Of a DNA stretch of 64,000 nt, positions 35,145 through 55,558 are shown in pieces (positions within the stretch are counted from its first letter, which is position 1; each line of letters begins with the position of its first letter). A program made the position numbers and the translations under genes. The notes beneath the pieces are model-generated. The model had not been told where the DNA came from and did not search any database. It saw nothing but the letters and a program-made list of their open reading frames with translations. The DNA comes from Shigella phage SHSML-52-1. Location: sequence record KX130865. The stretch is one strand, 5' to 3'.

Positions 35145-35405
35145 ATGAAAATGTATCAAGAATTTATCATTGAAGCAGATGCCAAAGGTCCTAAATTTAA
35201 AGTTAAAGCTTTCATTGGTGATGCCGAAGACTTTGGCTCATTAAAACGTAATGGGTATTCTTTCTTAGGTGGCGATGGTAAAGAAATCAACACCTATGCA
35301 AAACGTAGTGAAATTGCTTATGTTGTAGTAAATCCTAAAGTAGATGTTGACGATATTGGATACGATTTTAACAACTTCGGAATTATTTCTGGCGGTAAAG
35401 CTTAA
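35145..35405 (+). CDS. capsid-targeted internal protein-like (CTS MKMYQEFIIE)
   Basis: 86 aa; I-I-E cleavage context at residue 10. Confidence 0.55.
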   Translation: MKMYQEFIIEADAKGPKFKVKAFIGDAEDFGSLKRNGYSFLGGDGKEINTYAKRSEIAYVVVNPKVDVDDIGYDFNNFGIISGGKA

Positions 35406-35469: not shown

Positions 35470-35772
35470 ATGAAAACATATCAAGAATTTATTACTGAAG
35501 CGCGAGTGAGTGCAGGTAAATTAGAAGCCGCTATAAATAAAAAGGCCCATTCATTTCATGATTTGTCCGATAAAGACCGTAAGAAACTTGTAAGCCTTTA
35601 TATTGACAAAGAGCGTATTCTCGCTCTTCCTGGCGCTAATGAAGGTAAACAGGCCAAGCCTTTGAATGCTGTCGAAAAGAAAATTGATAACTTTGCTTCT
35701 AAATTCGGTATGTCTATGGATGACCTTCAGCAAGCGGCTATCGAAGCAGCTAAAGTAATTAAAGGTAAATAA
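35470..35772 (+). CDS. capsid-targeted internal protein-like (CTS MKTYQEFITE; IPII-sized)
   Basis: 100 aa, same length as T4 IPII; I-T-E cleavage context. Confidence 0.6.
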   Translation: MKTYQEFITEARVSAGKLEAAINKKAHSFHDLSDKDRKKLVSLYIDKERILALPGANEGKQAKPLNAVEKKIDNFASKFGMSMDDLQQAAIEAAKVIKGK

Positions 35773-35885
35773 CAGTTTACTTTCTCCTAGAATTGTGATA
35801 GTATATTCATAATTACTTAGAGGGGTAAATACAGAAATGGACAATTCATGCGCCACGGAATGGCCCAACCTAAAAGAGAAACTAA

Positions 35886-36425: not shown

Positions 36426-36730
36426 TGACCGCTATTGAAGTTTTTGAATATTGTTATAACAGCCCAGTATGCAATAAAAGGGCTCTTGTAGAAAATTACG
36501 AGATTTACCATTTTAAACCTAAACGATACCGTTTGACTAAAGGTCCGTTCGCAGGGCAGCAGGTTCTTTGTACTGCTCCTAATGCACGGTTGATGACTAG
36601 TATTCCGCATTTCAAAATGGAATTTATTGATGGGCCGTTTAAGGGATTAATCACTCAAAGTTTAATGGCGTTTAATTCTGACCCATTTTTGATTAAAGAA
36701 AAAACTTGGATAAATTTATTTTCTAATTGA
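36422..36730 (+). CDS. hypothetical protein
   Basis: 102 aa from ATG 36422 (ATGATGA overlap with upstream stop). Confidence 0.5.
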   Translation: MMTAIEVFEYCYNSPVCNKRALVENYEIYHFKPKRYRLTKGPFAGQQVLCTAPNARLMTSIPHFKMEFIDGPFKGLITQSLMAFNSDPFLIKEKTWINLFSN

Positions 36731-36736
36731 GGTTAT

Positions 36737-37099
36737 ATGAAAGCATATCAAATTCTTGAAGGCACACACAAAGGCACTATTTATTTTGAAGACGGTACTC
36801 AAGCCCGGATTATTGTCTCTAAGACTTTTAAAGAAGACGCTATTGTAGACCCGGAAATTTTCTACGGTTTACATGCCCGCGAAATTGAAATTGAACATCA
36901 ACCTAAAGTTAAAATTGAAGGTGGTCAACACCTGAACGTTAATGTTCTGCGTCGTGAAACTCTGGAAGATGCAGTTAAGCATCCAGAAAAATATCCGCAG
37001 TTGACCATCCGTGTATCCGGTTATGCAGTTCGCTTTAACTCTCTGACTCCGGAACAGCAGCGTGACGTTATCGCTCGTACCTTTACTGAGAGTCTATAA
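36737..37099 (+). CDS. autonomous glycyl radical cofactor (GrcA/YfiD-like)
   Basis: 120 aa; C-terminal half [60 protein letters not shown] matches the E. coli GrcA glycyl-radical domain as I recall it. Confidence 0.85.
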
Positions 37100-37323
37100 T
37101 GGCTAAATTGATTATAGAAGGGTCTGAAGATGTTTTAAAATGTTTTGCCGCCTGGTTTAGTTGCTCAGGCGAGCAATCATTCATTGAAGCATTTAGAATG
37201 GGTGATATTACTGGAAACTATCCGGCAACTGATATCACTGTACGTGGATATGGTATTAATGAGCCTATCCAATTGGTCGAATATGACCTTGCCACCGATG
37301 AGGAAATTCCTTATGTCGATTGA
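37099..37323 (+). CDS. hypothetical protein
   Basis: 74 aa; TAATG overlap with upstream gene. Confidence 0.5.
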   Translation: MAKLIIEGSEDVLKCFAAWFSCSGEQSFIEAFRMGDITGNYPATDITVRGYGINEPIQLVEYDLATDEEIPYVD

Positions 37324-51757: not shown

Positions 51758-52232
51758 ATGTTATTATCAGGCGCAAAATATAAAGAAGAAAAAACAAAAA
51801 TTTTATGATGCACAGAACGGTAAGTGTCCTATTTGCCACCGTGAATTAGACCCTGATGTTCAAGGTAACCATCTTGACCACGACCATGAATTAAACGGGC
51901 CAAAAGCTGGTAAGGTTCGTGGTTTACTATGTAACCTGTGCAATGCAGCAGAAGGTCAAATGAAGCATAAGTTCAACCGTTCTGGTCTTAAAGGTCAAAA
52001 TGTTGATTACCTCGAATGGCTTGAAGCTCTTCTTGCTTATTTGAAACAAGATTATTCTGATAATAATATCCATCCTAATTTTGTTCCAGACAAAACTAAA
52101 GAGTTCTCAAGACTAGGTAAAGAGGAAATGATGACCGAGATGCTTCAAAGAGGATTTGAATATAATGAATCTGATACTAAAACACAATTAATAGCTTCAT
52201 TCAAAAAGCAGCTTAGAAAGAGTTTAAAATGA
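51758..52232 (+). CDS. 49: endonuclease VII (gene 49), interrupted by a frameshift in an A6 run
   Basis: ATG 51758 gives MLLSGAKYKEEKTKIL then TGA at 51806; the other frame continues ...QKFYDAQNGKCPICHRELDPDVQGNHLDHDHELNGPKAGKVRGLLCNLCNAAEG... to 52232, matching T4 gp49; removing one A from 51789-51794 restores a 157-aa ORF. Confidence 0.6.
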
Positions 52233-52766
52233 AAATTGAAAAAGAAATTGAAGGATTAATTCATAAAACTAATAAAGACCTTTTAAACGAGAATGCTAAT
52301 AAAGATTCTCGTGTTTTTCCAACTCAACGGGACCTTATGGCTGGTATTGTGTCTAAGCACATTGCCAAAAATATGGTCCCGTCTTTTATTATGAATGCGC
52401 ATGAAAGTGGAATTATCCACATGCATGATATTGATTATTCTCCTGCTCTTCCGTTTACTAATTGTTGTTTAGTCGATTTAAAGGGGATGCTTGAGAATGG
52501 ATTTAAATTAGGCAATGCTCAAATTGAAACGCCTAAATCTATTGGCGTTGCTACTGCAATTATGGCACAAATTACTGCACAAGTTGCTTCGCATCAATAC
52601 GGCGGAACGACTTTTGCTAATGTAGATAAAGTACTTTCTCCTTATGTTAAACGCACCTATGCAAAACATATTGAGGATGCAGAAAAATGGCAAATCGCTG
52701 ATGCGTTGAATTATGCTCAATCTAAAACAGAAAAAGATGTCTATGACGCATTCCAGGCGTATGAGT
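52229..52766 (+). CDS. nrdD: anaerobic ribonucleotide reductase NrdD, exon 1
   Basis: Begins MKIEKEIEGLIHKTNKDLLNENANKD, near-identical to T4 NrdD; reading frame breaks after ...DAFQAYE. Confidence 0.9.
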
Positions 52767-52977
52767 TAATTTAATTCAGGCTCATGTAAAACCGGTCTAA
52801 ACGGGGAACCTCTCTAGTAGACAATCCCGTGCTAAATGTTCTTTTGAACTAAATGCCTAACGACTAACCGTGATGAATGTAGCGGTGTAGAATAGAAGCT
52901 AATGCTATTCGAAACGGCCGGCATCGAAAGATGAAGATATAGTCTAATCTGCATGGCGACATGCAGCAGTCATCTTG

Positions 52978-52985
52978 TATAAATA
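52978..52985 (+). promoter_or_regulatory. T4-type late promoter TATAAATA upstream of I-TevII
   Basis: Exact TATAAATA 30 nt upstream of the I-TevII ATG, inside the intron. Confidence 0.55.
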
Positions 52986-53014
52986 AGATTATCTTATGAA
53001 TACGAGGTGAAACA

Positions 53015-53785
53015 ATGAAATGGATAAAAAGACGTTGTACTAAAATAAAAGATAAAGACGCATTTACATACTTAGTTAAGTTTTCTAATGGTGACATTTA
53101 TATCGGTTATAAAAAATTTAGAACAATTAAAAACAAGCCCACAAACTGGAAAACTTACACAACGTCATCTAAGTATATAAATGAACGCTTAAAAACTGAT
53201 ACACCTACTAAATGGATAATTTTAAAAACATTTGATAGTTATAAAGATGCATTAAAACATGAAGAAGAGGTCATACGTAAATATTTTTATAGCAAAAAAT
53301 GTTTAAATAAATCCATAGGCGGTAAAAAGTTTTATAAGCATCCGGATACTGAAGAACATATTCAAAAATTAAGAGATGCTCATAAGGGTAAAGTGTTATC
53401 CGAATCTCATAAAAACAGTATAAAATCTTCTGTAGCTGAATATTATGCTAAAAACGGAAGATCTAAGGAACATGTGCAAAATAATATCAATAGTCGAAAA
53501 AGTAAAAAACAAGTATCGATAAAGCTTAAAAATAAAACTTTTAGAAGTTTTAAAAAAGCAGCGGAATATTTAAATTGCACTGAAAGTGAAGTCGAAACTC
53601 ATCCTCTTGTTTTGAGTATTAAGACTACTATTCATAAAGTTCCTGAATATGTGGTTGTTGACGGTATTAAGTATACGTCTTATATAGAAGCAGCTAAAGC
53701 GCTAAATTTTCATCCTAGCACTATAAAAGAACGTTGCATATCTATGGACTATCCAAATTTTGTTGTTTCATATAAACGGGCATGA
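53015..53785 (+). CDS. I-TevII: intron-encoded GIY-YIG homing endonuclease I-TevII
   Basis: 256 aa inside the nrdD intron; N-terminal GDIYIGYKKF...KHEEEVIRKY is GIY-YIG-like; size and position as T4 I-TevII. Confidence 0.85.
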   Translation: MKWIKRRCTKIKDKDAFTYLVKFSNGDIYIGYKKFRTIKNKPTNWKTYTTSSKYINERLKTDTPTKWIILKTFDSYKDALKHEEEVIRKYFYSKKCLNKSIGGKKFYKHPDTEEHIQKLRDAHKGKVLSESHKNSIKSSVAEYYAKNGRSKEHVQNNINSRKSKKQVSIKLKNKTFRSFKKAAEYLNCTESEVETHPLVLSIKTTIHKVPEYVVVDGIKYTSYIEAAKALNFHPSTIKERCISMDYPNFVVSYKRA

Positions 53786-53811
53786 ATTTGCGACTCATGC
53801 TGAATATAATG

Positions 53812-55091
53812 ATGAAGTAAATACACTTTTCAGCTCTAATGGACAAACGCCTTTTGTAACAATTACATTTGGTACAGGAACTGACTGGACTGAACGAATG
53901 ATTCAGAAAGCAATTCTGAAAAATCGTATTAAAGGTCTTGGTCGTGATGGGATAACTCCTATTTTCCCTAAGCTTGTTATGTTCGTTGAAGAAGGTGTTA
54001 ATCTTTATAAAGACGATCCGAACTATGATATTAAACAGCTTGCTTTAGAGTGCGCAAGCAAAAGAATGTATCCTGATATTATTTCAGCTAAGAACAATAA
54101 AGCTATCACCGGTTCATCTGTTCCTGTTTCTCCAATGGGTTGCCGTAGTTTCTTGAGCGTATGGAAAGATTCGACTGGTAATGAAATTCTTGATGGACGT
54201 AATAATCTTGGTGTTGTAACACTGAATCTTCCTCGCATCGCGTTAGATTCTTATATTGGAACACAGTTCAATGAACAGAAATTTGTTGAGCTATTTAATG
54301 AACGAATGGATTTATGTTTTGAAGCTTTGATGTGTAGAATTAGTTCCTTAAAAGGAGTTAAAGCGACTGTTGCTCCTATTCTTTACCAAGAAGGTGCATT
54401 CGGGGTTCGTCTTAAACCTGATGACGACGTAATTGAGTTATTTAAAAACGGTAGAAGTTCAGTGTCTTTAGGATACATTGGTATTCATGAATTGAATATT
54501 CTTGTCGGTCGTGATATTGGACAAGAAATTTTAACTAAAATGAATGCTCATCTTAAACAGTGGACTGAAAGAACTGGATTTGCTTTTAGTTTATATTCTA
54601 CTCCTGCTGAAAACCTTTGTTATCGCTTCTGTAAACTTGATACAGAAAAATATGGAAGTGTAAAAGATGTTACCGATAAAGGCTGGTACACTAACAGTTT
54701 CCATGTTTCAGTAGAAGAAAATATTACTCCATTTGAAAAGATTTCTCGTGAAGCGCCATATCATTTCATTGCGACAGGTGGTCACATTTCTTATGTTGAA
54801 CTTCCAGATATGAAAAACAATTTAAAGGGACTTGAGGCTGTCTGGGATTATGCTGCACAACATTTAGATTATTTTGGTGTTAATATGCCAGTAGATAAAT
54901 GTTTTACATGCGGAAGTACTCATGAAATGACTCCTACTGAAAATGGATTTGTTTGTTCTATTTGTGGAGAAACTGATCCTAAAAAGATGAACACAATAAG
55001 AAGAACGTGCGGTTATTTGGGAAACCCGAACGAACGCGGATTTAATCTCGGTAAAAATAAAGAAATCATGCATAGGGTTAAACACCAATGA
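53812..55091 (+). CDS. nrdD: anaerobic ribonucleotide reductase NrdD, exon 2
   Basis: Continues YEVNTLFSSNGQTPFV... to the Cys-cluster/glycyl-radical C-terminus (CFTCGSTHEMTPTENGFVCSICG...RTCGYLG); exons sum to 605 codons. Confidence 0.9.
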
Positions 55092-55558
55092 ATTATGATA
55101 GATTTTATCCTTGCGATTTTGTGAATGGCCCTGGTTGCAGGGTCGTTCTTTTCGTTACGGGTTGTTTGCATAAATGCGAAGGGTGTTATAATAAATCAAC
55201 ATGGAATGCTAGAAATGGTGCTCCATTCACTGGAGAGACACTAGAACAATTAATTGAATGCTTGAATAATGATTATATAGAAGGATTGACTATAACCGGA
55301 GGTGACCCTCTCTATCCTGATAACAGAGATGTGATTCACTCTGTGGTTCAAACTATTAAAAATCTTTATCCCAATAAAAGCATTTGGTTGTGGACAGGAT
55401 ATAATTTTGAAGATATTAAACAACTAGAAATGCTTAAATATGTTGACGTTATTATTGATGGGAAGTATGAGAAAAATCTTCCGACCAAAAAACTGTGGCG
55501 AGGATCAGACAATCAGCGACTTTGGACAAATACCGATGGGGTGTGGAAACATGATTAA
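55088..55558 (+). CDS. nrdG: anaerobic RNR activating enzyme NrdG (radical SAM)
   Basis: 156 aa beginning MNYDRFYPCDFVNGPGCRVVLFVTGCLHKCEGCYN; ATGA overlap with nrdD. Confidence 0.92.
   Translation: MNYDRFYPCDFVNGPGCRVVLFVTGCLHKCEGCYNKSTWNARNGAPFTGETLEQLIECLNNDYIEGLTITGGDPLYPDNRDVIHSVVQTIKNLYPNKSIWLWTGYNFEDIKQLEMLKYVDVIIDGKYEKNLPTKKLWRGSDNQRLWTNTDGVWKHD

Follow-up and report, generated by a model that had tools for sequence, protein, structure and literature searches.

Why does a gene of a T-even phage encode a protein in which one half is identical, residue for residue, to a protein of the host? T4 and its relatives, the textbook examples of virulent phages, destroy the DNA of the host, and exchange of sequence with the chromosome is not usually expected of them. 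The question is raised by a gene of Shigella phage SHSML-52-1 (sequence record KX130865), of which we analysed a stretch of 64,000 nucleotides, referred to here as the window. The gene is an open reading frame of 120 codons on the plus strand (36737-37099), and all features of it described below are on that strand. A first-pass annotation of the sequence had likened the last ~60 residues of its product to the E. coli "spare part" glycyl-radical protein GrcA (YfiD), had described the N-terminal half as different, and had suggested that the C-terminal half was derived from the host. Our analysis indicates that the gene is very probably a mosaic, in which an old phage N-terminal half is joined to 171 nt recently replaced by E. 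coli grcA, and that replacements of this kind have recurred in phages of Klebsiella.

Identity and position of the gene

The gene belongs to a Mosigvirus and is orthologous to T4 vs.6, which encodes the small, stand-alone glycyl-radical protein Y06I, an autonomous glycyl-radical cofactor. The SHSML-52-1 and T4 proteins are identical at 114 of 120 residues (95%). In both phages the gene lies between denV and regB, as it does in phages PECP20 and MM02, and the order of genes in the denV-vs-regB cluster is the same in T4, PECP20, MM02, fPS-2 and Jiaodavirus. The surrounding 15 kb are 96-97% identical to Mosigvirus genomes (e.g., vB_EcoM_MM02). Thus, the DNA is from an RB69-like T-even phage and not from T4 itself.

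Profile and structure comparisons agree on the type of protein. The phrog_1209 profile matches residues 1-120, the full length of the protein, with 211.6 bits, and it matches the N-terminal half alone with 60.2 bits. The Pfam Gly_radical domain (PF01228) covers residues 60-101 (67.2 bits; cut-off 22.2). Residues 18-120 match the TIGR04365 spare_glycyl model with 158.6 bits and so miss its equivalog cut-off of 170 bits, a shortfall that is due to the divergent N-terminal half; E. coli GrcA scores 233.9 bits. Among solved structures, the top match is E. coli YfiD/GrcA (6owr, E=2e-42) and the second is the C terminus of pyruvate formate-lyase (PFL), residues 696-759 of which align with residues 57-120 of the phage protein (E=3e-26; PDB 1h16). 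The codon alignment and the alignments to 6owr and the PFL C terminus identify Gly95 (codon GGT, 37019-37021), in the motif RVSGYAV, as the radical glycine. Its counterpart in E. coli GrcA is the radical glycine Gly102, and the sequence RVSGYAVRF around Gly95 is identical to E. coli GrcA residues 99-107.

The gene starts with ATG, and a GAGG Shine-Dalgarno sequence (36729-36732), 4 nt 5' of the start codon, overlaps the TGA stop codon of the upstream open reading frame (36728-36730). Downstream, the ATG of the next open reading frame (phrog_1986, 37099-37323, plus strand) shares its A with the stop codon of the vs.6 homologue. A scan for promoters and terminators near the gene found nothing above shuffled expectation, and no sigma-70-like promoter above chance. 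Therefore, the gene is probably part of a polycistronic unit.

The N terminus of the protein, MKAYQILEG (36737-36763), loosely resembles the MK(T/M)YQEFI.EA leaders of neighbouring open reading frames (35145-35177 and 35470-35502), which we take to be similar to the capsid-targeting sequences of T4 internal proteins. The resemblance of the vs.6 product to these leaders is probably coincidental, since the corresponding residues of bacterial GrcA are G-IQI.

A tract of host sequence within a phage gene

Both parts of the first description of the protein were borne out by the codon alignment. Residues 61-120 are identical to E. coli GrcA at all 60 positions, and the corresponding 183 nt contain seven differences, all of them synonymous. 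Residues 1-60 (36737-36916) are only ~25-32% identical to E. coli GrcA, in an alignment that requires four gaps, and the DNA that encodes them is also largely different. The similarity is highest in codons 61-117 (36917-37087; gene nt 181-351), which correspond to GrcA residues 68-124. Only 4 changes in 171 nt, again all synonymous, separate this tract from E. coli grcA. T4 has the same mosaic structure, and its tract differs from E. coli grcA at 1 of 171 nt. The tract of PECP20 differs at 2 of 171, and in phages OES_C-2 and Ec_MI-02 there is no difference in the 162 nt of codons 61-114.

The boundaries of the host-like segment are sharp. Searches of 5,426 complete E. coli genomes with blastn found the grcA match in all of them (E=2e-79), and the match covered gene nt 141-363 only. 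The block from nt 181 on is 96.2% identical to E. coli grcA, and similarity ends a few bases beyond the stop codon. The tract is the only megablast match to any E. coli genome in the 64-kb window. When SHSML-52-1 was compared with the Karamvirus homologue and with E. coli, the informative sites favored the phage by 63 to 9 left of the breakpoint and E. coli by 39 to 2 right of it. The maximum chi2 was 73 (permutation p<0.0005), which places the breakpoint at codon 60/61 (alignment codon 66-70). The last phage-type site is gene nt 178 and the first host-diagnostic site is nt 186, and this interval (36915-36922) rests on the per-site comparisons, the maximum chi2 and the junction in Jiaodavirus described below.

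The 3' breakpoint is between gene nt 351 and 354 (37088-37090). Here the gene returns to a phage-type tail, GAG AGT CTA TAA (37088-37099), where the host has GAA AGC CTG TAA. The three sense codons of this tail are identical to those of Slopekvirus and not to those of the host. Among phages, codons 118-120 are a patchwork of host and phage states. The patchwork is suggestive of different conversion end-points, in a segment with too few sites to decide.

The nucleotide alignment to host grcA, which had been proposed as the way to look for a recombination junction, thus gives a sharp one. Divergence is uneven, not uniform, along the gene, and a neighbor-joining tree of the 3' half puts T4 and SHSML-52-1 inside the Escherichia grcA clade. 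In the same tree, the homologues from Winkler-, Karam-, Slopek- and Pseudotevenvirus, from T5-like phages and from an Aeromonas phage are outside the enterobacterial clade. The expectation of a host-identical 3' half has to be modified: the half is host-derived, but it is 96-98% and not 100% identical, and its last three codons are of phage type.

Distribution among phages and age of the tract

The tract is widespread. The last 183 nt of E. coli grcA match 637 phage records at 95-99.5% identity, from phages whose names refer not only to Escherichia and Shigella but also to Yersinia, Salmonella, Hafnia and Citrobacter. The 5' half splits two groups by 17-20 differences in 180 nt, one Mosigvirus-like (SHSML-52-1, PECP20, L097 and L098) and one Tequatrovirus (T4, fPS-2 and L099-L102). 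SHSML-52-1 and T4, for example, differ at 19 positions in the 180-nt 5' half, and their last codons are CTA and TTG, respectively. There are ~17 fixed differences between the two groups in the 5' half and none in gene nt 181-350. Similarly, third positions differ between SHSML-52-1 and T4 at 14 of 60 codons in the 5' half and at 3 of 57 in the tract (p=0.008), and the tract, at 96-98% identity, stands out from its flanks, at 60-90%. These contrasts indicate that the tract is younger than the split between Mosigvirus and Tequatrovirus, or that it was homogenised afterwards. The low divergence of the tract between the two genera could have come from phage-to-phage spread of one acquired tract and not from separate conversions by the host.

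A second island with 96-98% identity to T4 is located at 35510-35780, amid a region of 60-90% identity, and covers an open reading frame of 100 codons (35470-35772). No E. coli genome matches this island, which therefore reflects conservation or phage-phage exchange, and not host DNA.

Individual phages vary in other ways. The gene of the Tequatrovirus OES_C-2 (L258, 227-583) has a 6-nt deletion in the N-terminal half that changes EIEIE to EIE and leaves a protein of 118 residues. Over codons 61-117 it does not differ from E. coli grcA, and host-type codons (AGC CTG) occupy two of the last three positions as well, which suggests a different 3' end-point of conversion. Tequatrovirus ES19 (L090, MN508616.2) was considered as a possible pre-insertion state, since of the two halves it retains only the 5' one, and rejected. 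It has a 158-nt out-of-frame deletion in the tract, with the last 22 nt left in place, and thus represents a secondary loss. The function of its vs.6 (601-800) has apparently been lost, unless the deletion is an assembly error. A Salmonella-type tract was not found in the phage collection, in which the best match to Salmonella grcA is 83.6%.

Recurrence in phages of Klebsiella

Phages of the genus Jiaodavirus have the same 5' junction with a different donor. In BovinicusUrsus, gene nt 181-342 (162 sites) have 2 differences from a metagenomic grcA (L180), compared with 21 from E. coli grcA and 40 from the Karamvirus homologue. The protein encoded by L180 is exactly that of K. pneumoniae GrcA (GRCA_KLEP7), and this allele is matched at 95% identity or more by 105 Klebsiella phage records. 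A second Klebsiella allele, L177, differs from L180 at six sites in the tract. BovinicusUrsus has the L180 state at all six of these diagnostic sites, KPV15 (L122) has the L177 state at five of the six, and Nispero has two L177 states followed by four L180 states. There were therefore at least two donors within one phage genus.

An alternative is that each phage group, that of Escherichia and that of Klebsiella, underwent one ancient conversion, and that all later changes came from reshuffling between phages without further input from the host. We consider this possible, if rather unlikely. It would account for the shared junctions of Mosigvirus and Tequatrovirus, and for the retention of the E. 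coli allele in phages isolated on Yersinia, Salmonella, Hafnia and Citrobacter, although the latter also indicates that conversion is too infrequent to track every host of isolation. In addition, the differences of the tract from E. coli grcA range from 0 to ~6 in a few E. coli phages, which by eye is compatible with Poisson scatter after a single event; we therefore rejected this spread as proof of repeated events. However, one conversion in the Klebsiella group is difficult to reconcile with tracts that match two host alleles at 5-6 of 6 sites and with a phage that is recombinant between them. The use of the same 5' junction with an independent donor means that shared junctions are no proof of one event, and the lack of fixed differences between the two genera in nt 181-350, compared to the number in the 5' half, also counts against this alternative. 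We thus favor recurrent conversion by host DNA.

Several of the records that we compared have peculiarities of their own. L122 is an IMG/VR copy of a Jiaodavirus of 167,034 bp that is probably KPV15. Compared to other Jiaodaviruses, its vs.6 is out of frame in the 5' half and only an open reading frame of 80 codons remains, owing either to a frameshift mutation or to a sequencing error. A 253-kb contig labelled 'Vagococcus sp. WN89Y' (L033, NZ_JBQPOM010000029.1) contains an enterobacterial grcA, the product of which is 91% identical to that of E. coli and falls in the Klebsiella GrcA cluster though the genome is labelled as a Firmicute. This assembly is probably mislabelled or contaminated. 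In Klebsiella sp. WOUb02, grcA is annotated on a plasmid record ('plasmid unnamed4', 275 kb; L024, NZ_CP170105.1), and the replicon could be a chromid, carry a second copy or be mis-assigned.

Conservation without transfer, an improbable alternative

Could the similarity have arisen with no transfer at all? Extreme purifying selection on the C-terminal 60 residues, together with codon preferences shared by phage and host, would have to produce it. The C-terminal half is in fact almost invariant as a protein across very different phages, and highly expressed E. coli genes are rich in A/T-ending codons, which a phage would also favor. In other T4-like genera, the C-terminal half is nearly identical as a protein and synonymous sites are saturated (dS 1.2-1.8). 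For example, the C-terminal halves of Pseudotevenvirus (from Enterobacter) and Slopekvirus (from Klebsiella) are 1-3 residues away from E. coli GrcA, with dN of 0.011 and 0.023, respectively, and dS of 1.3-1.5. Therefore, identity over 60 residues is by itself no proof of transfer, and the proof lies in the nucleotide data only.

Those data make conservation without transfer highly improbable. Third-position identity to E. coli is about 0.55-0.65 in Pseudotevenvirus and Slopekvirus, with a baseline near 0.55, and it is 0.98 in T4 and 0.90 in SHSML-52-1. In the 3' half, dS to E. coli is 0.05 for T4 and 0.17 for SHSML-52-1; values between enterobacterial genera are 0.36-1.0 (0.36 for E. coli and Citrobacter, 1.0 for E. 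coli and Salmonella). The phage tract is nearer to E. coli than Citrobacter is: over the same 171 nt, E. coli grcA differs from that of Citrobacter at 13 sites, from that of K. pneumoniae at 20 and from that of Salmonella at 29. In Winkler-, Karam-, Pseudoteven-, Slopek- and Krischvirus and in T5-like phages, the protein of the C-terminal half is kept and the DNA is 72-86% identical to any grcA, a baseline obtained by comparison with 160 bacterial grcA sequences. Lastly, host-type codon usage and higher GC3 are confined to the tract. Its codons include CCG and are of host type for Leu (CTG, 4/6), Ile (ATC, 2/2) and Gln (CAG, 3/4), whereas the 5' half uses ATT for Ile (9/9) and CAA for Gln (3/3). 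GC3 is 0.37 in the tract and 0.27 in the 5' half.

The N-terminal half and the improbable capture of a whole gene

The N-terminal half is shared with other T4-like phages. Its amino acid sequence is 50-92% identical to those of six other genera (including Jiaoda-, Winkler-, Karam-, Slopek- and Pseudotevenvirus), and 24 of its 60 positions are invariant among nine homologues from six T4-like genera. An hhalign comparison of the nine phage N-terminal halves with 12 from bacteria gave a probability of 93.5% (E=2.3e-7) over 47 columns with 32% identity, and the motifs ARxIVxK..F.ED and RE..E..P.V align between the two sets. Between SHSML-52-1 and T4, dN/dS of this half is 0.04/0.49 (about 0.08), and the half is thus maintained by purifying selection. 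Bacterial GrcA N-terminal halves are 69-90% conserved among themselves, from Escherichia to the Pasteurellaceae. The phage N-terminal half is therefore an old, separate lineage and not a fast-drifting disordered tail. As judged by these alignments, it is remotely homologous to the N-terminal half of GrcA, phage-specific and selectively maintained, and not a foreign domain.

These properties bear on a second way to explain the gene, namely that all of it was captured recently from E. coli and that a disordered, unconstrained N-terminal half then diverged rapidly. The homology of the two N-terminal halves would fit such a capture, as would the disorder of YfiD residues 1-60 in solution (PMC8683613). 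We nevertheless give it very little credence. The N-terminal half is conserved in bacteria across the Enterobacterales and Pasteurellaceae, and in phages it is common to other T4-like genera and subject to purifying selection. At 63 of 72 informative sites, the 5' half agrees with the phage relatives, and it could not have become saturated in the time that the tract gained 0-4 substitutions. Moreover, an intermediate allele with E. coli-like DNA in the N-terminal half was not seen among ~1,500 phage records.

Direction and possible mechanism of exchange

That E. coli and Klebsiella instead received the 3' halves of grcA from phages is extremely improbable: identity alone gives no direction, but the 3' and 5' halves of the host gene diverge concordantly (dS 0.36/0.57 between E. 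coli and Citrobacter, 0.045/0.067 between E. coli and Escherichia sp.), the allele is present in all of the E. coli genomes searched, the composition of the tract is host-like and unlike that of the phage genome, and the unconverted phage versions are outside the enterobacterial clade. From the first three of these observations, we read the direction as host to phage.

We suspect that a grcA homologue of their own has long been present in T4-like phages, and that constraint on the protein would keep the DNA of its C-terminal half, at ~75-85% identity, similar enough to host grcA to allow occasional homeologous recombination. The mechanism that we infer is homologous (homeologous) recombination during infection, that is, gene conversion. 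The exchange would start where similarity between phage and host DNA starts, at a 10-residue motif, and would stop where that similarity gives out, a few codons short of the stop codon. Junctions would then be identical with different donors because the tract is bounded by the extent of nucleotide similarity. Once converted, the tract would be 97-100% identical to the chromosome, and further conversion or exchange between phages would become easier. T4 degrades host DNA early in infection, which counts against such exchange.

The amino acid effects of the exchanges are nil or nearly nil, and the exchanges may be neutral by-products of recombination. It is also possible that there is selection for compatibility with the host PFL and its activating enzyme, PflA. 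Taking these points together, we speculate that the vs.6 tract might be a standing hot spot for host-to-phage conversion in virulent T-even phages, in which ~170 bp of near-perfect homology to the chromosome would let host alleles be copied in repeatedly. In that case the tract might record the recent host genus or allele of each phage lineage, and it may be selected for fit to PFL and PflA, with the N-terminal half giving the phage its own control over use of the spare part. We offer this combined proposal tentatively and regard it as somewhat doubtful.

Comparison to known systems

The phage protein and E. coli GrcA have in common the last 60 residues with the RVSGYAV motif, a small stand-alone form and remotely homologous N-terminal halves. 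They differ in that the phage protein is seven residues shorter, has a divergent N-terminal half and is below the TIGR04365 cut-off. The phage gene also lacks the promoter context of the host gene and is in a cluster of phage early/middle genes. The C-terminal glycyl-radical domain of PflB (1h16) is the piece that is lost upon cleavage by oxygen and replaced by GrcA. However, the vs.6 tract is of grcA type and not pflB type, and it is not part of a catalytic enzyme.

Intragenic recombination between host and phage is known for psbA and psbD of cyanophages (Zeidner 2005, Sullivan 2006, PMC1484495). As in vs.6, a phage copy of a host metabolic gene has exchanged segments with host alleles, and the exchanges were detected from patchy GC content, breakpoints and conflicting phylogenies (PMC1484495). 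In contrast to psbA, vs.6 involves enterobacterial hosts and phages that count the model phage T4 among them, exchange in vs.6 affects a single, precisely delimited structural domain and uses the same junction in every case, and the remainder of the gene has diverged much further from the host.

Neither the gene nor its function is new, and recurrent conversion from host to phage appears to be undescribed. We found no description of the mosaic origin of vs.6 in the searchable literature, coverage of which is partial, and an earlier report is possible. What is demonstrated here is the mosaic, the lineage of the donor, the direction and the recurrence. We consider this a clean, domain-precise and statistically strong case of host DNA written into a T-even gene. 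The host-overwritten form of vs.6 is present in hundreds of genomes, including that of T4 itself, and the overwriting was repeated with other donors in Klebsiella phages. The tract provides a natural marker of host-phage recombination that could be followed in experiments. It also calls for caution when grcA-like sequence is used to sort reads into host or phage. We considered whether a published qPCR assay for Straboviridae grcA might amplify host DNA and dismissed the concern, as its forward primer is in the phage-specific 5' half.

Function and the nrd genes

The mosaic does not change what is believed about the role of the gene. That a T4 homologue had already been described, as the first-pass annotation stated, is confirmed in the literature (PMC8683613): the two "spare part" proteins that have been validated are Y06I of T4 and YfiD of E. 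coli, according to the work of Wagner 2001 as described there. In the same account, PFL-activating enzyme activates Y06I and YfiD, and the activity of oxygen-cleaved PFL is then restored (Wagner 2001, in PMC8683613). The structured C-terminal half of YfiD (residues 61-127) enters the PFL active site, and its N-terminal half, which is disordered (residues 1-60), aids both the binding to cleaved PFL and the efficient installation of the radical (PMC8683613). By analogy with the T4 protein that was tested, host PflA would install the radical on Gly95 of the SHSML-52-1 protein, and, as in the in vitro work on T4, the C-terminal domain would slot into oxygen-cleaved host PFL and restore its activity. 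Of the oxygen-damaged enzymes that had been suggested as targets of rescue, PFL is thus the one reported for T4 Y06I in that account. Rescue of NrdD is unsupported, the domain being of the PFL/GrcA type.

The converted tract is wholly within the structured half. Nature has thus performed a domain swap, in which the part that enters PFL is interchangeable with that of the host, and the N-terminal half is phage-specific and under selection. Because the N-terminal half governs recognition and is phage-specific, it is where we would expect the phage spare part to differ in function from that of the host, and the swap points to the same half. A plausible benefit to the phage would be that PFL continues to supply acetyl-CoA and formate when infection takes place under micro-oxic conditions. 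Class III ribonucleotide reductase uses formate as its reductant.

Genes for this reductase, nrdD and nrdG, had been placed in the same 64 kb, and they are there: nrdG is at 55088-55558 and the C-terminal part of nrdD is at 53760-55091. The nrdD gene looks interrupted (52229-55558), and the open reading frame at 53760-55091 matches positions 145-562 only of the NRDD profile. It is preceded by an open reading frame resembling GIY-YIG/NUMOD1 homing endonucleases (53015-53785), a layout similar to the intron arrangement of T4 nrdD. A search of 52000-54300 against Rfam at the gathering threshold found no group I intron.

In some more distant phages, the vs.6 homologue itself is a neighbor of nrd genes, a positional link to anaerobic nucleotide reduction that is absent in T4 and Mosigvirus. 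In Aeromonas phage Ah1 (L094, 497-880), the homologue is directly between nrdG and nrdC, and in Krischvirus (L092 and L093, 467-883) it is immediately upstream of nrdC.
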